Assembly (NCBI GenBank): GCA_963666275.2 | Contig: CAXXOA010000003.1 | Location: forward strand, 1 to 64,000 | DNA: 64,000 nt | Direction of reading: 5' to 3' | Origin: Oceanispirochaeta sp. | GTDB lineage: Bacteria > Spirochaetota > Spirochaetia > DSM-2461 | Shown: in pieces, positions 1-12,868 of the stretch | How positions within the stretch are numbered: the stretch's first letter is position 1 | Layout: each line of letters starts with the position of its first letter | Made by a program: the position numbers and the translations under genes | The notes under the pieces: model-generated | What the model was told of the DNA's origin: nothing | Seen by the model: only the letters and a program-made list of their open reading frames with translations | Databases searched by the model: none

Positions 1-1854
1 CACAAGCCGGGACAGTTCCTTTCCGGATAACATCTCCCTCATCTGGTGGTCTACACTCTCCGAGTGGACCGCCTCTCCCATGACTAGGAACTTGTGCAAT
101 AATGCTTCATCGGGAAGGTAGTTCAGGGCCTGGTCGGATAGGCTGGTCATGGAAATCACATCCTCTTCGGGCATCAGCTTTTTTACCGTATCGATCAGAA
201 AGCTTTTCCCGGCGGCGGACTGGGAAATGACGATTACGCTCACAGGGTCGGCCATCAGACGGGAGGAAGCGGCCAGGTACATAAGGATCTTGTTTTCCTC
301 TTCTCCCACATACCCCAGAGCTTCCGTGTCCTTCACAATCCTGCCAAACAAGTTTGGATCTTTTAAAAGGGCCAGACCTGCCTCTTCCTCTTCCGCAGTC
401 AGTGCCCGGACATCCGCGGAGGGCGATGAAAGCAGGCTGGCCTGCTCCTCCAGGTAGTCCAGGATGTCTAATAGATCCTTTTCTATCCTGGCGGATTCCT
501 CACCGAACCGGCGGGCCACAGCAACAGAGAAAAGCGTCCGGCTCCGGGCGGAGAAGAGATCCACGTTATCTATGAATTTTACAGAATCATCCTCCGGTTT
601 CTGACAGCGGACATTCACCTTCAAAGAGCTGACGAATCCTTCCTTTACACCGATGATCCGATAATCCAGGGAAGAACAATGAAACAGGTATTTACCTTCA
701 GATCGTGAAGCAAAGGGCTTCTCTTTCGGTTTTGGGGTCTGCAGAGGGGCGGCATCTATGAGTTTATGGATTTCTTCTTTTTTAAGATGGGTCAGCGACT
801 CATTCCAGTCTTTTTCCGGAGGGAAAATAGTTCTCACCGAGTAGCCGGATTTCAGCAGTTCTTTGGCTGTACCTTCTGCAGCTTCCTGACCCGGATTGTC
901 ACTGTCGAAGGCAAGGATAACCTCCTTTGTACGGTTCTCTTCCAAAGCTTCCATGAGGTGGCTGGTCACTCCGTTGGTACCGTAGATGCAACTGACGTTT
1001 TCCAGGCCCAAAATCATCAGCGAAAAGGCATCGATCACGCTTTCAGCCAGGATCATCCGGTCAGGGTAAACCTTGAATGCCTGGTGATTGAACAGGCCTC
1101 TATGCGGCCCTTTCAAATAAAGGTGTTTTACCCTGGATCTTTCATTTATCTTCCTGCCATAGAATCTTTGGATCTTCCCGTCAGAAGAGTAAAGGGGAAA
1201 GACGATGCAGTCCCGGAAGGTTTCAAGGTTCTTTTCATTAAAGAGGCCTGTCTCTTTCAGTTCCTGAAACCGGGATTCTGAGAGTTTGTCTTTCAGGTCT
1301 CCGGGGCAGTAGCCGACCTTTAATCTTCCAAGGAGCTCGGGAGCATAAATCCCCCGTTTTTTCAGGTAGGAAACTGCTTCCGGATGGGAGAGCTGACGGT
1401 GATAGTAGTCTGCCGCATCTTCAAAGTCCCCCAGAGGGCTTTCATTAATGGCAGGGGAATCTCTCTTGTCCGTGACAGTCTTTGAAGGCTGCGCCTCCTT
1501 CGACTTTACAGGGGCTGCCGGTTTGGGAGAAAGGTCTCCTCCCTTGAGTATGGCCAGGGCTTCTTTAAACTCCACGCCCTGCTTCTTCATCACGAAGTCG
1601 AAGACATCCCCTCCGGCCCCGCAGCCGAAACAGTGAAAAAGCCCCTTGGATTGATCCACCGAAAGGGAAGGATTCTTGTCCTCATGAAAGGGGCACAGCC
1701 CCATAAAGGAAGTGCCTTTTTTCTCCAGGGCAATACCGTAGGAGGTAATTACGCTGACAATATCGGTTTGAGACTTGATCCGGTCTTTTTCAAACTCGTC
1801 CAGCAGGGAAGCCCCCTTCAAAGGACTCCTGCCTTTCAGCTTTGAAGAAGTCAT
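1..1854 (-). CDS. DNA primase/helicase fusion (CHC2 zinc finger + Toprim + P-loop ATPase), 3' end beyond window start
   Basis: Absent from the ORF track; manually translated as open from ATG 1854 (overlapping the parA stop, ATGA) to base 1. Motifs: CPFHEDKNPS...FHCFGCG; Toprim ILAESVIDAFS, ILAFDSD, KDWNE; Walker A-like SQSAAGKS. Confidence 0.93.
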   Translation of the reverse strand, partial: MTSSKLKGRSPLKGASLLDEFEKDRIKSQTDIVSVITSYGIALEKKGTSFMGLCPFHEDKNPSLSVDQSKGLFHCFGCGAGGDVFDFVMKKQGVEFKEALAILKGGDLSPKPAAPVKSKEAQPSKTVTDKRDSPAINESPLGDFEDAADYYHRQLSHPEAVSYLKKRGIYAPELLGRLKVGYCPGDLKDKLSESRFQELKETGLFNEKNLETFRDCIVFPLYSSDGKIQRFYGRKINERSRVKHLYLKGPHRGLFNHQAFKVYPDRMILAESVIDAFSLMILGLENVSCIYGTNGVTSHLMEALEENRTKEVILAFDSDNPGQEAAEGTAKELLKSGYSVRTIFPPEKDWNESLTHLKKEEIHKLIDAAPLQTPKPKEKPFASRSEGKYLFHCSSLDYRIIGVKEGFVSSLKVNVRCQKPEDDSVKFIDNVDLFSARSRTLFSVAVARRFGEESARIEKDLLDILDYLEEQASLLSSPSADVRALTAEEEEAGLALLKDPNLFGRIVKDTEALGYVGEEENKILMYLAASSRLMADPVSVIVISQSAAGKSFLIDTVKKLMPEEDVISMTSLSDQALNYLPDEALLHKFLVMGEAVHSESVDHQMREMLSGKELSRLV

Positions 1855-2606
1855 AGACCGCACCGGGATAGAAGTTCATTCCCCAGGGCCCTCACTTCCT
1901 CCGCCGACCTTTTCCACTGGTTCCCGGACAGCTGGACCAGGCCCTTCCTCTCGGCAATGGCTTCCTCGATCCGGATAGAACGGCTGATCACCGTATCAAA
2001 ACAGGTTCCTCCGAAGAACCCGGTCAGTTCGGCTTTCAGCTCCCGGCCGATCAGGGTAACCGGGTTGTAGCTGTTAAGGACGACTCCCAGGGCGTAAAGA
2101 GTCGGGTTCAGGCTCCGCCTGATCTTCTCCATGGTTTCCAGAAGGTCCGAAGCTCCCTGCAGGGCGTACTGACTGGCTGTAATGGGCATCACAAGGTGAT
2201 CGGCGGCTACAAGGGCATTGCCCGTGAGGATTCCCAGGGAAGGGGGAGTATCCATCAGGATAAAATCGTAGGATTCGAACTCCTCCCGTTCGAAAAGCTC
2301 CTTAAACCGTACATAGCCGTCGAACTCTCCCACAAGCTGTTTTTCCAGCAGGCTGAGATAGATCGATCCGGAAAGGATCTCAAGATTCTCACTGACACTT
2401 TGAACGTGAATTTCATCTTCTGTAATGGCCTCGTACAGTCCTTTTCCCGGCTGGTCGAAGAAACTTCTGGAAAGGTTGCCTTGGCTGTCACAGTCTACCA
2501 GAAGGGTTTTCAGCCCTTTATCATGGGCCAGGTAACAGCCCAGTTCTCTTGTCATGGTGGTTTTGCCGACCCCGCCTTTCTGGTTGGTAAATACGATCTT
2601 AGTCAC
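1851..2606 (-). CDS. parA: ParA/Soj family ATPase
   Basis: NQKGGVGKTT deviant Walker A, DCDSQGNLS, DTPPSLG. Confidence 0.93.
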   Translation of the reverse strand: MTKIVFTNQKGGVGKTTMTRELGCYLAHDKGLKTLLVDCDSQGNLSRSFFDQPGKGLYEAITEDEIHVQSVSENLEILSGSIYLSLLEKQLVGEFDGYVRFKELFEREEFESYDFILMDTPPSLGILTGNALVAADHLVMPITASQYALQGASDLLETMEKIRRSLNPTLYALGVVLNSYNPVTLIGRELKAELTGFFGGTCFDTVISRSIRIEEAIAERKGLVQLSGNQWKRSAEEVRALGNELLSRCGL

Positions 2607-2859
2607 ACTGGGCCTCCTCTTCCTTCTTCCAGAGGAGGTTCCGGATCACTTCCAGAGTCTCGGGGATCTTCTTCAAAGGAGTCCGGCAGGTACCCAGAAA
2701 AAGTTTACGGTCCCGGGTAATGTTCTCTCCTTCCAGGGTAAAGAGCAGCTCTTCCGCTCCCAGGTTTCCCATGCAAAGATTCACATCGACAAGGCTATGC
2801 TTCTGGTCCAGGAGGTAGGCGACTTCGGCCAGGTTGGCTGTTATGAGGCTGTCTTTCAC
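2599..2859 (-). CDS. Small hypothetical protein, paralogue of 2856-3140 (DUF5659-like)
   Basis: GTG 2859 overlaps the upstream stop (GTGA). TANLAEVAYLL...FTLEGE aligns with TSDLYEAAYYL...FYFEGE. Confidence 0.7.
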   Translation of the reverse strand: MKDSLITANLAEVAYLLDQKHSLVDVNLCMGNLGAEELLFTLEGENITRDRKLFLGTCRTPLKKIPETLEVIRNLLWKKEEEAQCD

Positions 2860-3140
2860 TGGCGGCCCCCTTTCATGCTTTTCCGGTAGTCCCGCTTGGC
2901 GTTGTTGGCGTAGTTGTTGATCTCTCCGTAACAACGGCGGAAGAGAACCAGATTGACAACCGCTTCACTTCTCAAAAAGTCGCTTTGAAGATGAGGAATG
3001 ACTTCTCCTTCGAAGTAGAAGTCGCAGATGATATCTTTGGTGACGTTCCCGGCCAGAAGGCGGCAGGTAACCAGGTGGGGCGTTACCCCTTTAGTCAGGT
3101 AGTAGGCGGCCTCGTACAGGTCGCTGGTGCGGATTTCCAT
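2856..3140 (-). CDS. Small mobile-element protein (DUF5659-like)
   Basis: RBS GGAG before ATG; TSDLYEAAYYL motif; first full gene of the coupled operon. Confidence 0.75.
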   Translation of the reverse strand: MEIRTSDLYEAAYYLTKGVTPHLVTCRLLAGNVTKDIICDFYFEGEVIPHLQSDFLRSEAVVNLVLFRRCYGEINNYANNAKRDYRKSMKGGRQ

Positions 3141-3211
3141 TCTTTACTCCAAATCCAGGAGCAGAACGGCATTTGCGGGGAAGGTAAATTGTGATAGAAT
3201 TGTTGGTGCAT
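3095..3211 (-). CDS. Putative 38-aa leader peptide (uORF) MHQQFYHNLPSPQMPFCSWIWSKEWKSAPATCTRPPTT
   Basis: AGGAG 9 nt before ATG 3211; overlaps the start of 2856-3140 out of frame. Confidence 0.4.
   Translation of the reverse strand: MHQQFYHNLPSPQMPFCSWIWSKEWKSAPATCTRPPTT
3173..3200 (+). promoter_or_regulatory. Sigma70-like promoter of the antisense RNA
   Basis: TTGCGG-N16-TAGAAT with extended -10 TG (TGaTAGAAT). Confidence 0.55.
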
Positions 3212-3283
3212 GGAGTTCTACTCCTATGTGGTTTTAAGCCTGTTTCCGAATGTTTGGCGACGTACGGGAAACGGGCTTTTTTA
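3207..3283 (+). ncRNA. Putative cis-antisense RNA (~77 nt, SymR/CopA-like)
   Basis: Lies between the promoter and hairpin AAGCCTGTTTCCG...CGGGAAACGGGCTT + T-run; the loop contains TTGGCG; complementary to the uORF RBS/ATG. Confidence 0.55.
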
Positions 3284-3344
3284 TTGCCGACGGCAATATT
3301 TCAAAAAGTGTGTCAAGAAAATAGTAACACTTTTTACAAAAACT

Positions 3345-3373
3345 ATTATGTGTTATCATAACACCTATGTCAA
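3345..3373 (-). promoter_or_regulatory. Replication-operon promoter with candidate XRE operator
   Basis: TTGACA-N17-CATAAT on the minus strand; palindrome GTGTTAT-C-ATAACAC (3350-3364) over the spacer. Confidence 0.65.
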
Positions 3374-3406
3374 GCAATAATAGAAACATCGTTTAAAATA
3401 ATAACC

Positions 3407-3799
3407 ATGCCAAGAAAAATGACCGTTGAACTCCCGCCTATTCAAAATAAGGACGATAACAACATTGGGAAGAGAATAGCAAATATTAGAAAACAGCAAG
3501 GATTGTCTCAAAAAGAGTTGGCCGACAAAATCGGTATCAAACGAACTCTTGTAACTGATTATGAAATTGGAAGACTCCATTTAAATGATGAGATGATCAT
3601 AAGGTTTGCACTGGCTATGAATGTTTCATCTGATAAAATTCTTGGCCTTGATGGATCAAACCTTGGAAAACAGAATCTCACTATCACAAAACGCCTGAAA
3701 GAACTGGAAGAACTCCCACCGGCAGACCAAAAAAAAATCCTTGAACATATCAAGGATTTGAGAGCCATGAATGAACTAAAGGAAAATCAATCCAAATAG
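3407..3799 (+). CDS. XRE-family HTH repressor
   Basis: IGKRIANIRKQQGLSQKELADKIGIKRTLVTDYEIGR HTH; divergent from the replication operon. Confidence 0.92.
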   Translation: MPRKMTVELPPIQNKDDNNIGKRIANIRKQQGLSQKELADKIGIKRTLVTDYEIGRLHLNDEMIIRFALAMNVSSDKILGLDGSNLGKQNLTITKRLKELEELPPADQKKILEHIKDLRAMNELKENQSK

Positions 3800-3837
3800 A
3801 TATTCTTTCGATATCCGGCTATTACAAAATAAGAAAC

Positions 3838-4134
3838 CTAACCCTGCTTACTGCATTCCATATTCATCTCTTTTCGAAGTAAATCATTCAGCAAAGTCTG
3901 ATACCCTTTGCCATGACTTTTCAGCCAGAGAAGAATGTCCGCGTCGATTCGGGTGGTTATCTGCTCTTTCCTGGGCTTGTAAATATCGTGAAAAGGGACG
4001 GCCCTGGAAAAATCCTCATCAGACCACTCTTTTATGTCTGATGTATCAATTTCAGAGTCGGGTAATTCGGCAAGCTTGGCGAGTCTTGCCTTTGTGTCTT
4101 CATCCATAGGGCTAAAACCATTTTCCTGCTTCAT
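3838..4134 (-). CDS. brnA: BrnA antitoxin
   Basis: IDTSDI...YKPRKEQITTRIDADILLWLKSHGKGYQT; downstream of and overlapping brnT. Confidence 0.9.
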   Translation of the reverse strand: MKQENGFSPMDEDTKARLAKLAELPDSEIDTSDIKEWSDEDFSRAVPFHDIYKPRKEQITTRIDADILLWLKSHGKGYQTLLNDLLRKEMNMECSKQG

Positions 4135-4399
4135 ACTTCCTCCTCTCTGCCGTTGTCGCTTTTCTGGCAGATATTATTCTGAAAACGTCTTCATCCTGCT
4201 GATTTCTCATAGTGTAAACCACAAGCACCAGCAGAATGCCGCCGATATGCCCCATAATTTGCTGACGGGGCTCTGAATCCGTGTAATCCTCACGAACCAG
4301 GGCAAACGGGTCGGCAAAAACATACTTGGCGTCTTTGAATGACAATCCGTGTTTCTTTCGGTTGATTATGTCTTTTTCTTCATCCCATTCAAAGGTCAT
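4112..4399 (-). CDS. brnT: BrnT toxin (RNase)
   Basis: MTFEWDEEKD..NRKKHGLSF...RIISARKAT..ER. Confidence 0.93.
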   Translation of the reverse strand: MTFEWDEEKDIINRKKHGLSFKDAKYVFADPFALVREDYTDSEPRQQIMGHIGGILLVLVVYTMRNQQDEDVFRIISARKATTAERRKYEAGKWF

Positions 4400-4405
4400 A
4401 ATATA

Positions 4406-4434
4406 ATTATACTATTGTAACTACAATTTTGCAA
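4406..4434 (-). promoter_or_regulatory. brnTA promoter with operator; probably a leaderless transcript
   Basis: TTGCAA-N17-TATAAT, 6 nt to ATG; palindrome ATTGTA-AC-TACAAT (4414-4427) in the spacer. Confidence 0.65.
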
Positions 4435-4878
4435 AGACAGAGAGGCGCCAACACAAAAGCTTTTACGCTTCAATCGGTAGAGGAAAGATTTTCAAAACGG
4501 AATTTTTCGGAATTTATCGAGTAATAACGGGAATGAAACAATGAAACACCGGTCCCGGCCAGAGCTGATTCCGAAGAAAAAGCTCCATAGGCAGTAAACG
4601 CAAGCCCACTCCCTGCGGTCGTTAAACAGAACAAATCTTATCCTAAGCACGCTTCCGATAAGATCTCGTTCTGTTCACTTGCTATAACTCTACCACTAAA
4701 AGCAGGTGAACAGAGAATTCGTTATATGGCGAATGCGGACAGCTGCCAGGGACGGCAGCTGCAGATAACGGATTTTCTGATCAGAACCGGAGCCACGACG
4801 GCGGAGGTTCGGCCTGCGATTACTGCCGGAAAAACTTCTTCACGTGAGAAAAGTCATTCCGGCGAAAAATAAATCCTG

Positions 4879-4937
4879 TCATAACAAGTATGTTGCTGCC
4901 GTTTCCCTTCGGTCACAGCAGAACAATGGTGTTATGA
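4879..4937 (-). repeat. attC-like (59-base) imperfect palindrome
   Basis: TCATAACA...TGTTATGA ends; inner arms TGTTGCTGC/GCAGAACA with one bulged base; the stop codon of the 4932-5456 ORF lies in the TCATAAC core. Confidence 0.55.
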
Positions 4938-5456
4938 GCTTTTAACAAATTGTAGAATACTTCTTATTAATAGAAAACCTAGATTTGAAAGAACAATAAA
5001 ACTAAGAACAAATAAAATAGATTTAATAATATGGACTGTAATTTTTTTGAAATGAATACGATTCCTTAATACTAGTAATGTTATAAAAATGGTCAAATAC
5101 CAAAACAATAGTAAATAAAGACTTCCTGAACCCAATAAAAAGTTACTTATCAGAAATGCAATTACTTCATATATAATTCTAGCAATTAGAATTACGCTAC
5201 ACACAAATTTAAAGGCTTCATTTCTATTAAAAAAAAGAAAAGAAAGAAGCACTATTACTCCCGTTATTACAAGTAGTTTTCCTATCAGGAAAAGAACAGT
5301 AATAGAAAGAATAGCTTCATTAATCTGATAAATACCAATTACTTCGAAGATAAGCAGCGTAAATTGAATAATAAAATATGTAATTAATACAAATTTAAAT
5401 TTATTCCCAATTTCATTTTTATTAATCTGCGAATTGCTGTTTTTTAAATTATTCAT
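4932..5456 (-). CDS. Multi-pass membrane protein, putative Rhs immunity protein
   Basis: About 5 hydrophobic segments, very AT-rich, overlaps the toxin-tip stop by 8 nt. Confidence 0.7.
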   Translation of the reverse strand: MNNLKNSNSQINKNEIGNKFKFVLITYFIIQFTLLIFEVIGIYQINEAILSITVLFLIGKLLVITGVIVLLSFLFFNRNEAFKFVCSVILIARIIYEVIAFLISNFLLGSGSLYLLLFWYLTIFITLLVLRNRIHFKKITVHIIKSILFVLSFIVLSNLGFLLIRSILQFVKSS

Positions 5457-6155
5457 TCACATCATCCTCACTCTTATCCTCTCCTGATTCATTATTAGAA
5501 TCATCTTTTTCAGAATTATTTTTTTCTGTATTTTGATTTTCATGGATATCATCTAATAAGTCACGAGCGCCTTCTGCTCCATTTTCATACATATTGTTTT
5601 CTTTTTTCAAATTGAAAATTTCTTTAATTCTTCCAAAAATCTTTTTATTCTCCTCTGACAAATCTAAATTATAATCTAGAGGTTCCAACTGAGAATCAGC
5701 AACGAATTCAGCAATATCTTGAAAAGATCCATTATCAAATGTAATTCCCAGCTTAGCAATATCTCCAAAATTCTCAGCAGCTTTAGATCTTTTTTCTATT
5801 TCAGTTGATTGTATTTGACCTTTTAATTCATCTATTCTTTTTTCATTGTTCTCGATTTTTAATTCACTGCTCTTTTCTATATGTTCAAGCATTTTAGAGA
5901 AATCTTTGTAATCATATTCATCACGAATATAAGTATGACCATATTGACTATCAGAGTTTTCAATATCCAGTCTTGTTTGTGCTGCTGCAAAAGCGGCTGA
6001 ATCACTCATCATACCGGTTGGGTCAATGTATTTTAGCGGATTGTTTGAAACGTAAACATACCAATTTTGCCCGTCCCGGGCGGGGTCTTCTGAGATGAAT
6101 CTACCGGTAGAAGCATCATACCACCTGGCATTAAAGTAATACAAACCAACCTCTC
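5449..6155 (-). pseudogene. Orphan Rhs core-end + C-terminal toxin tip (no N-terminal Rhs body)
   Basis: GLYYFNARWYDASTGRFISEDP...NWYVYVSNNPLKYIDPTG then a variable domain; the listed TTG start sits in a terminator U-tract without an RBS. Confidence 0.85.
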
Positions 6156-6156
6156 T

Positions 6157-6188
6157 AAACAAAAGAGCCCATCACAACAGATGGGCTC
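6157..6188 (-). terminator. Intrinsic terminator of the LysM lipoprotein gene
   Basis: GAGCCCATC-6nt-GATGGGCTC followed by TTTTGTTT on the minus strand. Confidence 0.85.
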
Positions 6189-6207
6189 CTATAATTTAAT
6201 CTTAAAT

Positions 6208-7662
6208 TTACTTTTCAACCGGCGGTATAATCAGCACCTGGCCGGGGTAGATCAGATCCGGGTTGGGGATCTTTTTCTGGTTCCGTTTCCAGATCTTGGG
6301 CCACAGGAAGGGGTCGTCGTAGATGCCGTCGAATCCGGCGATTTTCCACAGACAGTCCCTGTCGTCGGGGTTGTACTGAACCGTGTAGGTCTGGCCTACC
6401 GCGTTGGCCCGGTAGGCTTTGATATAGGCTTCGGCCTGAACAAAGAGCTCTTTGGACTTTTCGTATTCCCCGTCATTCCGGGCCTGGACGCCCTCCTGCC
6501 AGAGGGTTTTCGCCTTTTCCAGAAGGGCGGAAACGCTGTTGACCGAGCCGGCCATCTCTTCTTCCTCTTCTTCTACAATCTCCACTTCCTCATCCAGAGA
6601 CTTGTCCAGATCATAGTTGAGCAGGCTGGAATCTTCGCCTTCGTAGTCTTCGGCTTCCACATCCAGAAGGGGGTTTTCGTTCAGGTATTCGCTTCCCGAC
6701 CAGGGATTGCCGTCCAGGATTTCTCCCTCTTCACTTTGAACCTGCAGGGCCGAGGCCTCTTCCAGGTCCTGCTGAATCTGCAGCAGTAGCTGATCAGTGG
6801 CGCTCTGTTCTTTTCGTTTTTCCGCCAGATAGATGGCGTTCCGGGCTTTGAACTTGGCCTCTTTCAGAGTGGCTTCACTGGCTTTCAGATCGTACTGACG
6901 GAAACTTGTCATACCGACTGACAGAAGATCACTGGCTTCCAGGAACTCCTTGTCCGCCCAGATATAGGCTTCCGCTTCTTCAGCCTCTGTCAGATAGGTG
7001 TTGGTATCCCTTTCCAGGATTTTTACCCAGCGGATATTTTCGGAAAGCTGTCTGTGAAGGTTTCTGGCTTTCAGGGATGAGAGATTGTAGGACTCTCTGG
7101 CTTTTACAAGGTTGCCCTGATCAATCATTCTGTTGGTATCGTCAAACTGGGTTTTTACGGCCTGATAGGCTTCGGGACTGAATTTGTCTGCTTCAATTTC
7201 GAGCAGGGCCGCATCGAGTTTTGCCATATTGGCACGGGCCTCGGCTATGAGTCCCTGTTTTCCCAGTTCGAAGGCTCTGTCGGCTTTTTCGATGACTCCG
7301 GCCAGAAGGGCCCGGGACTGTTCGGGATCGCTTTCTGCCAGATCGGCGGCTTTCTGAAGGTCCGCATACCCGGCTTCCATAAGATCCGGTGCAAAACGGG
7401 AGGCCTCCGCCTCTTCCGCTCTCAGCAGAGCCTGACGGGCCAGCTGCAGTTCTTCCCGGCTGACCGGTTCAATCTGCGGTTCTTCTACAGGTTCAGGAGT
7501 CTCTACAGGAGCTTCGCTGATGCCTTCCTCTATTACCTCTTCAGGCGGTGCTTCTTCTTCAATCTGTTCTTCTTCCACCACTGGTTCTTCCGGTGTGGAT
7601 TTACAGGATGCAATAACAAATACAGAAAGGATTAAGAGTATTAAAAATGCTTTTTTGTTCAC
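6208..7662 (-). CDS. LysM-domain lipoprotein (spirochaete BB0323-like)
   Basis: Lipobox VIASC, long helical middle, C-terminal DCLWKIA...WPKIW..N...IPNPDLIYPGQVLIIP. Confidence 0.85.
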   Translation of the reverse strand: MNKKAFLILLILSVFVIASCKSTPEEPVVEEEQIEEEAPPEEVIEEGISEAPVETPEPVEEPQIEPVSREELQLARQALLRAEEAEASRFAPDLMEAGYADLQKAADLAESDPEQSRALLAGVIEKADRAFELGKQGLIAEARANMAKLDAALLEIEADKFSPEAYQAVKTQFDDTNRMIDQGNLVKARESYNLSSLKARNLHRQLSENIRWVKILERDTNTYLTEAEEAEAYIWADKEFLEASDLLSVGMTSFRQYDLKASEATLKEAKFKARNAIYLAEKRKEQSATDQLLLQIQQDLEEASALQVQSEEGEILDGNPWSGSEYLNENPLLDVEAEDYEGEDSSLLNYDLDKSLDEEVEIVEEEEEEMAGSVNSVSALLEKAKTLWQEGVQARNDGEYEKSKELFVQAEAYIKAYRANAVGQTYTVQYNPDDRDCLWKIAGFDGIYDDPFLWPKIWKRNQKKIPNPDLIYPGQVLIIPPVEK

Positions 7663-7746: not shown

Positions 7747-8061
7747 TCAGGGCAGGTAGAATACCTCTTTTAAAGGGATGGATACGGGGGAATTGTCGGG
7801 GTTTGTCTCCATTATATCCGCCATGAATTCCCACCATTTCTGTACCACCGGGTTGGATCCCAGATCCTGGGATCCTCCCTCTCCGGAAATTTTCTGAACC
7901 GCGAAGAGTGTATTTGTCTCTTCATCCAGGAATATGGAATAGTCGCTCACACCGGTACTGCGGATCAGCACCTCCAACTCGGGCCAGATCTCGTCGTGCC
8001 GCTTTTTGTACTCGTCGGCAAATCCGGGTTTCAGGTGCATTTTAAAGGCAAACCGTTCCAT
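7747..8061 (-). CDS. rhaM: L-rhamnose mutarotase
   Basis: [22 protein letters not shown]...YSIFLD...[10 protein letters not shown]. Confidence 0.95.
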
Positions 8062-8095
8062 AATATTTTCTCCTTATGACAATCTCCGGATCTTC

Positions 8096-9133
8096 CTAAC
8101 TCAGCTGCTGTTTTTTCAGCTTTCTCTGGGCTTTCATCATTTCCAGCATCTCCGGAATCAATACAGCCATTATAAGCAAAAAGCCTGTGGTAATCACCAT
8201 CACTTTCGCTGAAAGATTCATAAGTCCCATACCGAACTTCAGGTATCCCAGTAGAAAAATTGCCATGATCACTCCGAAGATATTTCCTCTACCGCCTGTG
8301 ATAGAGACGCCTCCCAGGACGACCAGGGTTATGGCTTCCATTTCCCAGCCGTTGGCTATGTTGGGTCTGGTACTTCCGATTCTGGATGTCAGAAGGATCG
8401 CGGCGATTCCGGCAAACAGGCCGTTCAGCGCCAGGTTGGTAAAACGGATCCTTTCTACGGGCACTCCGGAAAACCGGGCGGCTGTACTGGAGTTTCCAAT
8501 GGCATAGACCTTCCTTCCGTAGGATGTTTTGTGCAGAACAAATCCCATTATGCCCGCCAGTATCAGGAACAGAACCAGTTCGAAGGGGATGATCGTATTG
8601 CCGATGTAACCCTGTCCGAAGTAGCCGAAGTTTTCAGGGTAATGGGTAAAGGCTTTGTCTCCCAGAAATGCCTGGGAGATTCCTCGGAAAAAGGAAAGGC
8701 TTCCCAGAGTCACCGCAATGGCGGGGATCTTCAGACCTGTCACAAGGAGTCCGTTGAAAACACCCGCTGCCAGTCCCACAACCAGTCCGATCAGGATCAG
8801 CGCCGGTGTGTCTGCGCCCCGGGAGGAGGCCAGCCCCATAAAGAAAGAGGACAGAGCCATGGTGGATGCCACGGAAATATCAATATCACCGCACATGATT
8901 ACAAAGATCATGGGCAGGGCCAGGATGGCTTTCTCCATAAAGTTGAAGGTCGTATTCAGAAGATTGAAATAATCCAGAAAGTACTGGGTGGTGGAAGAGA
9001 AGAAGACGACGACCCCCATAAAAAGGATGACCAGGATAAACTCCCACTTGGTGGCAAGACCTATCAGTTTTTCTTTTAAACTTGTTTCGTTAAGCAGCCT
9101 AGTCTGGCTGACATGTTTCATGGATGTGCTCAT
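8096..9133 (-). CDS. rhaQ: Rhamnose-type ABC permease
   Basis: RbsC-type IDISV; VVLGGVSITGGRG; operon context. Confidence 0.85.
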   Translation of the reverse strand: MSTSMKHVSQTRLLNETSLKEKLIGLATKWEFILVILFMGVVVFFSSTTQYFLDYFNLLNTTFNFMEKAILALPMIFVIMCGDIDISVASTMALSSFFMGLASSRGADTPALILIGLVVGLAAGVFNGLLVTGLKIPAIAVTLGSLSFFRGISQAFLGDKAFTHYPENFGYFGQGYIGNTIIPFELVLFLILAGIMGFVLHKTSYGRKVYAIGNSSTAARFSGVPVERIRFTNLALNGLFAGIAAILLTSRIGSTRPNIANGWEMEAITLVVLGGVSITGGRGNIFGVIMAIFLLGYLKFGMGLMNLSAKVMVITTGFLLIMAVLIPEMLEMMKAQRKLKKQQLS

Positions 9134-9136
9134 TGG

Positions 9137-10120
9137 TTACCGTCTCCTGTTAAGCAGTTTTTTCTCGTTTCGCATTTCCATCAGCACATTGGCTACAATG
9201 GCTGCCAGGACGACAAAGCCCTGTATTCCCATCTGGTAGAAGGGGGAAAGATTGACAACGGGAAGGGCATTGTTGATGATTCCCAGAAAAAGGGCACCCA
9301 TCACGACTCCTGTCAGGGCTCCGGCTCCACCGGAAAAACTGACTCCTCCCAGAACGCAGGCCGCTACAGTCTGAAGTTCAAACCCCGTGGCAGTTTCGTT
9401 TACCGCGGCGGCATACCGGGCCGTCCACATGACTCCGGCCAGACCGCTCAGGGCACCGCTTATGGTAAAGATCATCAGATTGACCTTTTTTTCGCTGACT
9501 CCGACAAACTTCGCCGCTGTTTTATTGCCGCCGATGGCATAGATTTCTCTGCCGCTGCGGGTGTAGTTGGTAAAGTAGTACATAATAATGAAAACAAGGA
9601 TGGCAAAGATGGTCAGATTCGGTATCAGCAGGAGCCGTCCTTTGGGGATGTTCATATAGGCTTCTGTCATTTCATGGGCCGTCACCCACTGGCCTTTGCT
9701 CATAACGAATGTGAAACCCCGGAAGATACTCATGGTTCCCAGAGTCGTAATGACCGGGGGGATTTTGCCGAAGGCAACGCACACGCCGTTGAATGCTCCC
9801 AGAAGGGTTCCGATCAGGATTCCGATAGCCAGGATCAGAAGAACCGGCATGGATGGATTGTACTGATTTATCATGCTGGCGGCCATTCCCGAAAAGGCGA
9901 TGGTTGAGCCTACGGAAAGGTCGATGCCGCCGGTCAGGATGACAAGGAGCTGTCCTGCCGCCACCATGATCAGGATAGCCGTATCGTTTACAATCCTCTC
10001 AACATTATCCAGATCCAGAAAATGCGGAGCCCTGGTCAATACGACTATCAGTAGTACTGCAATCAGGATTATCAGGTTGAATTCTCTATTCTGAAGGAGT
10101 TTTTCCCATTTTTTTTTCAT
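9137..10120 (-). CDS. rhaP: Rhamnose-type ABC permease
   Basis: GGIDLSVGS, ACVLGGVSFSGG. Confidence 0.85.
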   Translation of the reverse strand: MKKKWEKLLQNREFNLIILIAVLLIVVLTRAPHFLDLDNVERIVNDTAILIMVAAGQLLVILTGGIDLSVGSTIAFSGMAASMINQYNPSMPVLLILAIGILIGTLLGAFNGVCVAFGKIPPVITTLGTMSIFRGFTFVMSKGQWVTAHEMTEAYMNIPKGRLLLIPNLTIFAILVFIIMYYFTNYTRSGREIYAIGGNKTAAKFVGVSEKKVNLMIFTISGALSGLAGVMWTARYAAAVNETATGFELQTVAACVLGGVSFSGGAGALTGVVMGALFLGIINNALPVVNLSPFYQMGIQGFVVLAAIVANVLMEMRNEKKLLNRRR

Positions 10121-11646
10121 TACTTTTTACCTCTGTCATTGGCTTTATCCACTACGTGGCCTGTCGCTGCCAGGATAATGTTGTCGCTGTTGGCTTCCTC
10201 TCTGCTGAAGGTTTCTGTAATTTTTCCCTCGTGCATCACGACAATACGGTCGGCCATTCCCAGAACTTCTGGCATTTCCGAAGATACCAGGATTACCGCC
10301 AGACCGCGGGAGGCCATTTCAGAAACGAAATTATGCACCGCCGCTTTGGTGGCCACATCGATTCCCTTGGTCGGTTCGTCCAGAATAAGGATTTTGGGAT
10401 CCGTAGCCAGCCATTTGGCCAGTACCACTTTCTGCTGGTTTCCACCGGAAAGAGTATCCGCATTCACCTTCCAGCTGGCCGCTTTTATCTCCATTTTATT
10501 TCCGAATTGTTCGGTTATTTCCTTTTCCTTTCGGGAGGATATCACGCTGAATCTGCTGATGCTGTCAATCTGGGGCAGGGTGATATTATGGGTCAGGCTC
10601 ATCTCGAGGATGGCCCCCTGTTCCTGTCTGTCTTCCGGAACAAAGGCGATTCCCTCTTTCATGGCAATCCGGGGAGAACTGATATGAATCTCTTTCCCGT
10701 TGAGTTTGATGGTACCTTCTGATTTTTTATCTATTCCGAAAATGGTCCGCATCACTTCCGAACGGCCTGCACCGACCAGTCCGAAGAAGCCCAGGATCTC
10801 TCCCTTGTGGAGGGAGAAGGAGACGTTTTTGAAGTATCCCGGAAGGGACATGTTTTCCACTTCCATGACTGTTTCACCGATTACAGCTTCCTGTTTGGGA
10901 AACATCTGATCCAGAGACCGTCCCACCATCATGGTGACGATTTCATCAATCGTGGATTTAGCGACCTCTCCTTCGCCGATATACTGTCCGTCACGGAAAA
11001 CCGTATAATGGTCACAGATATCAAAGATCTCTTCGAACTTATGAGAGATAAAAACGATGGCTTTTCCTTCTTTCTTCAGCTGCCGGATAATCTTGTAAAG
11101 CTCTTCCACTTCTTTCATGGAAAGGGCGGATGTGGGTTCGTCCATGATCACGACTTTGGCATCAACCGACAGGGCTTTGGCAATTTCAACCATATGCCTC
11201 TGGGCGGTTCCCAGATTCTTGATCAGTGTATCCGGACTGATATCCAGCTCCAGACGATCAAGCAGCTCTTTCGTATGACGTCTCATGGTTTTCCAGTCCA
11301 GAGGGGAGAAGGCCCCGCCTTTTTTGGTATGATGTCCCATGTAGATGTTTTCTGCTACGGAAAGTTCAGAAAACATGGACGCTTCCTGATGAATAGCCAC
11401 AACTCCAGCCGCCTGGGCATCATGAGAGGTCCTGAATACCTCTTCTTTCCCGTTCATCAGTATCTGTCCCCTAGTGGGGTGGTAAATCCCCGTCATAATT
11501 TTTACCAGGGTGGATTTTCCCGCTCCATTTTCACCTATAAGGGCATGAACCTCTCCGGTCCGAATGGTAAAATCCACATTGTCCAGGGCTTTGATCCCGG
11601 GAAAATATTTTGCTATACCTTTTAATTCCAATATTGTTTCTTTCAA
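10120..11646 (-). CDS. rhaT: Sugar ABC ATPase (two domains)
   Basis: GENGAGKST, LSGGNQQKV; TTG 11646 follows AAGGAGA. Confidence 0.9.
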   Translation of the reverse strand: MKETILELKGIAKYFPGIKALDNVDFTIRTGEVHALIGENGAGKSTLVKIMTGIYHPTRGQILMNGKEEVFRTSHDAQAAGVVAIHQEASMFSELSVAENIYMGHHTKKGGAFSPLDWKTMRRHTKELLDRLELDISPDTLIKNLGTAQRHMVEIAKALSVDAKVVIMDEPTSALSMKEVEELYKIIRQLKKEGKAIVFISHKFEEIFDICDHYTVFRDGQYIGEGEVAKSTIDEIVTMMVGRSLDQMFPKQEAVIGETVMEVENMSLPGYFKNVSFSLHKGEILGFFGLVGAGRSEVMRTIFGIDKKSEGTIKLNGKEIHISSPRIAMKEGIAFVPEDRQEQGAILEMSLTHNITLPQIDSISRFSVISSRKEKEITEQFGNKMEIKAASWKVNADTLSGGNQQKVVLAKWLATDPKILILDEPTKGIDVATKAAVHNFVSEMASRGLAVILVSSEMPEVLGMADRIVVMHEGKITETFSREEANSDNIILAATGHVVDKANDRGKK

Positions 11647-11712
11647 AACACAGCTCTCCTTAAGGGTTTGCCTCAAAAACCTGATGTCCCAGGTTGTTCA
11701 GGGAAGCCCTTT

Positions 11713-11797
11713 CCCCCCTTTGGCTCCGCTCAGGGAGCGAAAGGCGGGTCATTGTCTCCCCTCGCTCGCCCGGTCCCTGAGCGGAGCCGAAGGGGGG
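11713..11797. repeat. REP-like inverted repeat
   Basis: CCCCCCTTTGGCTCCGCTCAGGGA ... TCCCTGAGCGGAGCCGAAGGGGGG. Confidence 0.75.
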
Positions 11798-11837
11798 GGT
11801 GAGGATCGAAAATGCTTTTCTGATCCTCACCTTTTTT
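11798..11837. terminator. Stem-loop downstream of the binding-protein gene
   Basis: GGTGAGGATC...GATCCTCACC with a T-run on the + side. Confidence 0.6.
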
Positions 11838-11851
11838 GTTTAAAATGTTTC

Positions 11852-12868
11852 TTAGAAAATAGAAGCGAAGTCGGCGATGTTGTCTTTGTTGAATACAAAG
11901 GGTTCGCCCATGATGGAGTTTCCGTCAGGTCCGATAGTGATGGTTCCCATTCTTCCGGCGTCAACTTTGTCGCCGGGTTTGCCTTCGATATCTCCGGCAA
12001 TCATTCTTTCCAGAATATAGGTGGCAGAATAACCAAGATCTACAGGATTCCACAGAGCCATCTGTCCACAGGTTCCATTTTCAATGTAGTGCTGCATTTC
12101 AGAGGGAAGTCCCAGACCGGTGATCTGAACCTGTCCCTGAAGTCCTTCGTCTTCAATCGCTTTGGACGCTGCCAGGATACCTACGGTTGTGGGAGAGATA
12201 ATACCGGCCAGGTCGGGATATTTTTTGAAGAGGCCAACAGCTTCTCTGTAGCTCTTATCTGCTGCATCGTCACCGTAAACAACATCAACCAGTTCCATGT
12301 CTTTGTATTCGGGAGCTTTGATAGCTTCTTTCATAACAGCGATCCATGCATTCTGGTTGGTTGCCTGAGCTGTGGCGGAAAGGATGGCGATTTTTCCTTT
12401 GTAGTCGCAGAGTTCTGCAATGAGTTTGATCTGCTGGGCACCGATCAGGTCTGTATCAGAAGGAGCCAGAGCGACTTCCCGGCCGCCGGAAGAGATATTG
12501 GAGTCAAATGAGATGACCCGGATACCGGCTTTCATGGCTTTCTTGGTAACAGGAATAAGAGCATCAGGGTCATTGGCGGAAATAGCGATACCGTCAACTC
12601 TCTGAGCTATCAGTGTTTCTATAATTTCAATCTGACCTTCTGCTGTGGCAGTACTCGGTCCCATATAGATGGATTCAACATTTCCCAGTTCTCCAGCAGC
12701 TTCGACCCCTCCGTCCGCTACTGCTTCAAAAAATCCATTACCGAGGCTTTTAACAAGAAGGACAATTTTATGGTTGTCATCAGCTGCGGCTTCCTGCCCG
12801 CCGGCGGCATACAGGAATCCTGAGAAAAGGCTCAGAATCAGTAAGAAAAGAATTGCTTTGGATTTCAT
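11852..12868 (-). CDS. Rhamnose ABC substrate-binding protein
   Basis: Signal peptide ending AGGQE; VKSLGNGFF, LWNPVDLGY; linked to rhaM. Confidence 0.88.
   Translation of the reverse strand: MKSKAILFLLILSLFSGFLYAAGGQEAAADDNHKIVLLVKSLGNGFFEAVADGGVEAAGELGNVESIYMGPSTATAEGQIEIIETLIAQRVDGIAISANDPDALIPVTKKAMKAGIRVISFDSNISSGGREVALAPSDTDLIGAQQIKLIAELCDYKGKIAILSATAQATNQNAWIAVMKEAIKAPEYKDMELVDVVYGDDAADKSYREAVGLFKKYPDLAGIISPTTVGILAASKAIEDEGLQGQVQITGLGLPSEMQHYIENGTCGQMALWNPVDLGYSATYILERMIAGDIEGKPGDKVDAGRMGTITIGPDGNSIMGEPFVFNKDNIADFASIF

Follow-up and report, generated by a model that had tools for sequence, protein, structure and literature searches.

The first 6,141 nt of the 64,000-nt stretch of Oceanispirochaeta sp. 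DNA analyzed here (the window, which is the start of contig C3 of the 97%-complete source genome, G000) form the left part of a unit with a period of 9,163 bp, the remainder of which lies on contig C2. The unit carries, in order, an Rhs tip, a candidate immunity gene, the BrnTA pair, an XRE-family regulator, two small genes, a ParA-family ATPase, an 893-aa primase-helicase and two tyrosine recombinases (Table 1). We consider it probable, at about 0.78, that this is an element that integrates site-specifically, by means of its two recombinases, at a tyrosine codon pair (YY) of the Rhs core and thereby swaps toxin tips, a reading that is built on sequence comparison. The gene list of the original prediction (primase, ParA, small genes, XRE and BrnTA next to an AT-rich tip and immunity pair) was recovered by open reading frame (ORF) and Pfam analysis, with a GC fraction of 0.29 for the tip and immunity genes versus 0.52 for the replication genes and for the neighboring LysM gene.

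Comparison of the Rhs fragment with the TIGR03696 profile gave a score of 53.2 bits (cut-off 32.5), and it is therefore no chance match; its core ends in a DPxG motif (DPTG, residues 40–43). Neither the tip nor the 174-aa ORF behind it matched a family in Pfam, NCBIfam or the ESM atlas, and the labels "toxin" and "immunity" are candidate assignments made by position. The P-loop of the 893-aa protein suggests a helicase role; among the sequences of solved structures (PDB) the primase half alone was matched, the C-terminal half giving no match. The XRE regulator likely serves as the repressor switch of the element. No match to BrnA of the window was found in the units of the related genomes G004 or G017. 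Relaxase and conjugation genes were absent from the unit ORFs, the TraI match being a 34-aa stretch at 22 of 930 bits, and no packaging or helper-interference genes were recognized in the unit, in which two small ORFs lack a family match and PHROGs were not searched.

Table 1 Features of the unit and its flank. Coordinates are window positions unless a contig of the source genome is named.
Feature	Location	Strand	Remarks
Primase-helicase-like replication gene	1–1863	−	First 621 of 893 aa; cut by contig end; CHC2 zinc finger, DNAG_N, Toprim
Complete primase-helicase copy	G000:C2:5349–8030		893 aa; P-loop SQSAAGKS
ParA-family ATPase	1851–2606	−	AAA_31, E 2.8e-42
Small conserved ORF, at most 111 aa	2599–2934	−	No family match (Pfam, NCBIfam)
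Small conserved ORF, 94 aa	2856–3140	−	No family match (Pfam, NCBIfam)
Sigma-70-like promoter match	3345–3373	−	11/12 consensus only; faces the replication/recombination operon, divergent from XRE
XRE-family regulator	3407–3799	+	HTH_3, E 2.8e-13
BrnA antitoxin, variable cargo	3838–4134	−	Pfam
BrnT toxin, variable cargo	4112–4399	−	Pfam
Palindrome-rich spacer	4681–4878	none	Common to other tip/immunity units
attC-like hairpin, 59 nt	4879–4937	none	TCATAAC...GTTATGA; overlaps immunity stop codon
Candidate immunity gene, 174 aa, hydrophobic	4932–5456	−	By position and overlap with tip stop; about 4 hydrophobic stretches (hydropathy)
Headless Rhs core and variable tip, 230 aa	5449–6141	−	Core YYFNARWYD...DPTG, 6141–6013
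Inferred crossover interval, left attachment site	6128–6138	−	Core nt 4–14, second Y codon onward
Host-side arm	6142–6156	−	Reads REVGL by chance; absent from element arm
Intrinsic terminator of host LysM gene	6163–6190	−	
Host LysM-domain lipoprotein gene	6208–7662	−	Flank, outside the element
Tyrosine recombinase 1	C2:8166–9119		After primase; PF00589, intact R-HxxR-H-Y
Tyrosine recombinase 2	C2:9116–10135		After recombinase 1; PF00589, intact R-HxxR-H-Y

The two ends of the unit

Window positions 1–6141 are identical (100%) to C2:7211–1071, and the identity ends exactly at the YY codons (TATTAC), before which the host arm ends in GGTTTG and the element arm in GAGGGTGAT. On the host side, the U-tract of the LysM terminator precedes GLY by 9 nt and YY by 15 nt. 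Only 10 open codons precede YY, and the sole possible start, a TTG within the terminator tail, has no visible ribosome-binding site. The empty sites of two congeners, G003 and G010, hold the look-alike GGTTTG or GTTTGTA at equal distance from the terminator, and the GL codons are therefore probably host DNA. The original prediction had extended the element over positions 1 to 6190 and let it begin at GL; the Rhs fragment does lie beside the LysM terminator, but the boundary is at 6141, at YY. The absence of YD repeats and of a ribosome-binding site, also noted there, was confirmed: the RHS/YD repeat (PF05593) has no match anywhere in G000, whereas a repeat body in frame upstream of the core is present in G004 and G180.

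Relatives had been proposed as the place to look for an empty site, and a full rhs at this locus, later deleted, as the finding that would speak against an insertion. Downstream of the LysM gene, none of nine congeners matched the Rhs fragment or the primase (one has just 2.5 kb after LysM), in agreement with an empty site and not with a deletion; base-exact mapping of that site is not possible at the divergence of these genomes. In the two closest congeners the radical-SAM gene found at C2:18479 comes right behind the LysM gene or with three genes in between, and the starts of contigs C2 and C3 are therefore the two ends of one island.

At the far end, both things that had been expected there, recombinase genes and a second copy of the junction, are present: the two tyrosine recombinases on C2 are followed by a 98-nt arm and then by the Rhs core again. 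The same short core thus stands at both ends of the element, and it is fixed across insertions.

Three runs (X1–X3) of a single sample, from which the assembly may derive, gave read contigs that cover the element and show no differences in it. Their depths, which are metagenome depths and not true copy numbers, were 27–29 for the element versus 9.5–10.7 for the host flank in X1, 27–28 versus 5.9–6.9 in X2, and 8–10 versus 2 in X3. The element is present in about 3–4 copies, tandem or free. The depth ratio differs between runs of the one sample (~2.8 versus ~4), and is too weak a basis for claiming free circles.

The right end was resolved in part by the same data. A read contig at host depth departs from the tip sequence termed tip A after C2:10262 and then diverges from the assembly; the true right end therefore has a different tip, and C2:10770–11670 is a mixed consensus. 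The read contig carrying the recombinases ends at C2:10247, which fits the first tip difference at core nt 15. That the second tip/immunity copy at C2:10770–11670 is a decayed tip A was ruled out by the mix of two tips in the read contigs. On the 3' side of the right-hand tip, 579 nt match a G004 unit at 94%, and in a run from another sample (X4) the DUF3800 stretch is joined to the element body, with IS21 absent. Since the sequence after it is element cargo elsewhere, the right-hand tip is probably the remnant of an older element. By eye, no right junction with plain host DNA was seen in selected stretches of C2:11560–18520. The secondary landing at a non-rhs site that had been predicted for the present element fits an older event instead, the right end of the present element being another Rhs tip.

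Junctions and homologues in related genomes

A class-wide primase scan found matches at E 1e-60 or better in 15 of 401 class genomes, G000 included. In the 14 others, an Rhs core lies directly after the second recombinase in 7, nearby in 2 and nowhere in 2, the contig being too short in 3. The element arms in G000, G003 and G004 all end at the same base (10/10 arms, 5 haplotypes), in GAGGGTGAT followed by TATTAC, and the 8 arms in G003 and G004 lead into 8 different tips. In G003, one unit is present twice, in intergenic regions that are not linked to each other; over 3,671 nt the copies differ by a single mismatch, which falls on core nt 3, and the right-hand tips diverge from that unit at core nt 15 or 16. 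These limits place the crossover within core nt 4–14 (11 nt, window 6138–6128), an interval too short for homologous recombination. The sequence at the element junction, ATTA-TTACTT-TAAT, is a short inverted pair around a 6-nt spacer and in this resembles Xer-type sites. In G180, the first codon of the core is changed to TCT by the arm at 3 junctions, which agrees with a crossover after the first Y codon. An attachment site in the Rhs core codons, as predicted originally, is strongly supported by the single base shared by 10/10 arms, with the exact point moved to just after the first Y codon.

Tandem arrays lie inside contigs of G003, G004, G017 and G180. The C4 site of G003 is empty in G000. 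Across the genus, 14 of 33 core matches start at model positions 26–30, also where the primase was not found, and headless tips cut at this codon are therefore common relics. One such tip was observed in G000 at C1:1483347 (L002:1848); flanked by the V-type ATPase K gene and ispG, it starts precisely with TATTAC and has a candidate immunity gene, an insertion sequence and an 85-nt hairpin, without an element body, and its site is empty in the 4 congeners read. A further region of G000, C1:1785000–1795700 (partly L003), holds baseplate/lysis-like genes, two Rhs fragments, a toxin–antitoxin pair, a tip and an immunity candidate; the host genes downstream of it also follow an element arm and tip on contig C1 of G004.

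An in-frame rhs fusion with an element tip had been predicted, and one was found in G017: a full rhs, open over 2,559 codons, reads in frame into a tip that is found again in a repeat of 9,336 nt with 99.9% identity, and a different tip, displaced downstream, comes next. G180 has a full rhs, then a tip, elements and further tips. An Aureispira plasmid repeats the layout of G017 with a fixed junction, and Paraburkholderia has two orphan CdiA tips, both joined to one arm at a single codon. Elsewhere in G180, the tip start MMSDSAAL... (L029:17580–18480) resembles the window tip, and its element joins the core further downstream.

Metagenome searches gave 366 confirmed loci, of which the best 80 were used; 30 of these are informative (two recombinases and at least 1 kb beyond), several of them near-duplicates. 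In these 30, an Rhs core was detected by profile in 15, a DPxG tip start by eye in 7, and neither in 8. The YY junction recurs in L105, L106, L111, L142, L158, L164 and G161, and other subfamilies appear, from their sequences, to cross over at other conserved codons. A phylum search covering 11 of 22 further spirochaete genomes found a core after the recombinases in 4, tip-like ORFs with another motif in 2 and neither in 5. Primase matches occur in 40 plasmid records; 5 of the 6 examined lie in or beside polymorphic toxin genes, of Rhs type in Lonsdalea, Janthinobacterium and Aureispira and of CdiA type in Paraburkholderia and Enterobacter. Homologues in Proteobacteria and Bacteroidota repeat the pattern at Rhs and CdiA genes. 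A scan of a genome collection with a single primase query returned 5 close loci only, none of 107 candidate relatives in a scan of viral contigs was confirmed, and phage records gave recombinase matches of just 29–34%. The expectation that homologues are tied to one Rhs start codon therefore holds for the close ones, which share the codon, and not for the wider family, whose members do not all flank Rhs.

Several observations stand beside these. L069 (NZ_CP072857.1, Lonsdalea) is an 11.3-kb circular record made up of two element units only, with Rhs tips, immunity genes and SymE; it is a candidate excised circle, or may be a collapsed array. In L173, L174, L175 and L187, the ORFs behind the homologous elements are tip-like and have a non-Rhs motif in common (~TGRRxPxSxQEN), possibly marking another polymorphic toxin family as target. 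L171 and L179–L184 form a Leptospira-type branch with primase, one recombinase and then ParA, in long tandem units in which no Rhs core was detected. On the other side of the LysM gene in the window, positions 7747–12868 hold host sugar ABC transporter and mutarotase-like genes, ordinary ones that by eye are of the rhamnose-uptake type.

A model for tip exchange and its rivals

The proposed pathway starts from a circle consisting of tip, immunity gene, cargo, XRE, replication genes, recombinases and arm, which would recombine within core nt 4–14, the recombinase pair linking it to the Rhs core immediately behind the first tyrosine codon. In a full-length rhs, the element tip would thereby come into frame and the old tip would be moved downstream. 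Because the circle starts with its own tip, integration would rewrite the toxin end and bring the matching immunity gene. XRE would repress the replication/recombination operon, the primase-helicase and ParA would maintain or amplify the circle, and repeated entry would give arrays of displaced tips. At the LysM locus, an earlier relative likely landed on the host look-alike behind the terminator, its body being lost later; most likely the present element then entered the older headless tip, where it stands in its several copies. The first, secondary-site landing is the weakest step of this scheme, because no arm was seen to abut plain host DNA. As G000 has no Rhs body, the window tip would not be delivered here. 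The hairpin and the shared spacer after immunity genes would let the element enter behind a resident pair and leave by way of the core, and the hairpin may thus be a second door for tip capture.

A number of points weigh against site-specific tip exchange by the element. The arm-to-tip junction together with the 3–4-fold depth fits a tandem copy as well as a free circle. The arm is joined to plain host DNA in 0/10 junctions, the LysM look-alike is visible in only 2 of the 9 congeners, C2:10770–11670 is a mixed consensus, and the right-hand tip sequence is incomplete. The unit has no recognized transfer gene. The crossover position appears to vary among subfamilies, and there is no Rhs core after the recombinases in 8/30 metagenome loci, 2/14 class genomes and 7/11 further spirochaete genomes.

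A selfish replicon that uses the Rhs core merely as a conserved safe landing site, with tip and immunity genes as an addiction module and swapping as a side effect, is an unlikely account of the same data. It is consistent with the 5 and 7 Rhs cores that G000 and G003 hold without RHS repeats, with the classic toxin–antitoxin pairs carried by units, and with the in-frame ATG that the arm, at L001:990–1070 on G000:C2, supplies 27 codons before YY in 10/10 genus junctions (at a similar distance in the G180 arm), from which displaced tips could be made intracellularly; orphan Rhs tips can act as internal toxin–antitoxin modules in Salmonella, according to the available part of PMC7043789. The open arm frame may however be inherited, and unrelated arms lack it (6 codons in L111). 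G017, G180 and Aureispira each have an intact body fused to the leftmost tip, identical bodies in G003 carry different left tips, so that tips turn over fast, and since the recombination mechanism would be the same, the swap remains. A second alternative is RecA-type homologous recombination between Rhs cores via circles (Jackson et al. 2009), with the primase-recombinase module as a passenger. The cores do share ~130 nt at roughly 70–85% identity (22–41 differences in 135 nt), and some subfamilies have 60–150 core codons ahead of YY, enough for homologous recombination, but each lineage has base-exact junctions, and both the read contigs and the pair in G003 put the exchange in the first 14 nt of the core; moreover, the model of Jackson et al., in the available part of the paper (PMC2935791), predicts that fragment lengths vary and mentions no integrase accompanying Rhs. 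We regard this explanation as highly improbable.

The hairpin could also be the true recombination site, served by the host integron integrase, with the tip-immunity pairs as cassettes. Its DNA fold gave z values of −3.1/−3.5, and by eye its layout fits that of attC; attC-like hairpins follow Rhs immunity genes in G000, G003 and G004, in 58-, 59/60- and 85-nt variants, and, apart from C1:1669778 and a single short weak match, the hairpin-similarity matches in G000 all fall at Rhs loci. A strict genome-wide attC scan gave 15 matches, mostly unrelated. An integron integrase over the cut-off is present in G000 (C1:1063760), G003, G004 and G180, and not in G010. Set against this, the left tip has accompanied the element to two sites, the element boundary is at YY, the hairpins show no similarity to the integron region of the genome, and the element recombinases score 89 and 103 bits against the IntI profile, far below the cut-off of 265; cassette exchange is likewise highly improbable. 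The integron region itself (G000:C1:1050000–1064710) is a chromosomal integron, with IntI over the cut-off and a cassette region bearing three copies of a 426–440 aa reverse-transcriptase-like gene, which we take to be probably attC-targeting group II introns. Finally, a duplication produced by assembly at contig ends in a decayed rhs locus has in its favor that both copies touch contig ends and that the right end is partly mixed consensus. It is already largely refuted, with a residual probability close to nil, by the read contigs, which cover the element without differences at 3–4 times host depth, by the arrays inside contigs of the four related genomes, and by the lack of an rhs at the LysM site in 9 congeners.

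Site-specific integration remains our preferred explanation, whereby the element likely swaps the toxic ends of inter-bacterial weapons. It provides a concrete candidate for tip exchange: the recombinases can be named, the crossover is confined to 11 nt and alleles from before and after the exchange occur naturally, which makes the question testable. If true, a common and unexplained annotated neighborhood (XRE, toprim primase and "XerC" beside rhs/cdiA tips) would be a class of mobile elements that edits the effector domain of a host protein instead of restoring its target gene, and its recombinases would offer natural in-frame domain-swap sites. More tentatively, and at somewhat under even odds, such elements may be widespread and serve specifically to diversify polymorphic toxins, as self-replicating circles, each with recombinases specialized on a conserved pre-toxin codon (several Rhs-core positions, a CdiA motif and at least one other toxin family). 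These circles would re-arm the host on entry, gain tips via the hairpin/spacer second door and leave through the core, and they would supply the integrase-bearing circular intermediate wanting in the C-terminal displacement model.

Comparison with known systems

In that displacement model, a circle-borne tip replaces the resident tip and shunts it downstream, giving arrays of orphan tips, while tip exchange in Rhs and contact-dependent inhibition (CDI) toxins and the origin of the circular intermediate are left open, as far as the available part of the paper goes (Jackson et al. 2009, PMC2935791). The present system is alike in that an incoming tip displaces the resident one and orphan arrays result; it differs in that recombinases and replication genes belong to the circle candidate itself and the crossover point is fixed. 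Each component is of a familiar kind; their function as a class was met nowhere in the literature searched, in which subscription journals are thinly covered, and no description of such an element or tip-swapping route turned up there, including the available parts of PMC11278526, PMC10011098, PMC10210955, PMC3414803, PMC3482391, PMC2935791, PMC12247911 and PMC7043789. A prior description is possible, because the neighborhood is common in public annotations and subscription papers are thinly represented.

The element is not a member of the integrons, RIT elements, XerCD-dif elements, integrative and conjugative or mobilizable elements, or rAID systems. With integrons it shares an attC-like hairpin at the end of an AT-rich gene and toxin–antitoxin cargo, while its recombinases fall far short of IntI and its mobile boundary is the Rhs core. 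Like RIT elements (PMC3414803, available part) and XerCD-dif integrative elements (IMEX), it has Xer-like recombinases side by side and a short spacer between the ATTA/TAAT halves; RIT elements have three adjacent recombinases where the unit has two, and in contrast to XerCD-dif elements the unit uses its own recombinase pair, not that of the host, on a target that is the Rhs core and not dif. Its recombinases reach at most 191 bits against the XerC/XerD profiles (cut-offs 330–335). The relaxase and conjugation genes of integrative and conjugative or mobilizable elements are lacking. The rAID systems of Bacteroidales collect orphan immunity genes, with a tyrosine recombinase alongside and conserved intergenic motifs (PMC12247911), and polyimmunity loci beside XerC/D are mentioned by Zhang et al. 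2012 (PMC3482391), both in the parts of these papers available. These loci likewise place a tyrosine recombinase beside genes of inter-bacterial conflict and share with the unit the presence of conserved intergenic motifs, but in place of an orphan-immunity array behind one recombinase, each unit here has one tip-immunity pair together with replication genes, and recombines inside the toxin reading frame.

Phage satellites such as phage-inducible chromosomal islands (PICI) are about 10 kb long and carry a tyrosine recombinase, a divergent repressor, small genes, a primase-helicase and variable cargo. The unit has the integrase, divergent repressor and primase-replication module in common with them, and by this analogy would work like a satellite-sized integrative element. 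It departs from PICI in having two recombinases and ParA, with no packaging or helper-interference genes recognized, and in the position of its attachment site, which lies in a toxin gene, where the 3' end supplied by the element is a different one and not a copy of the original.

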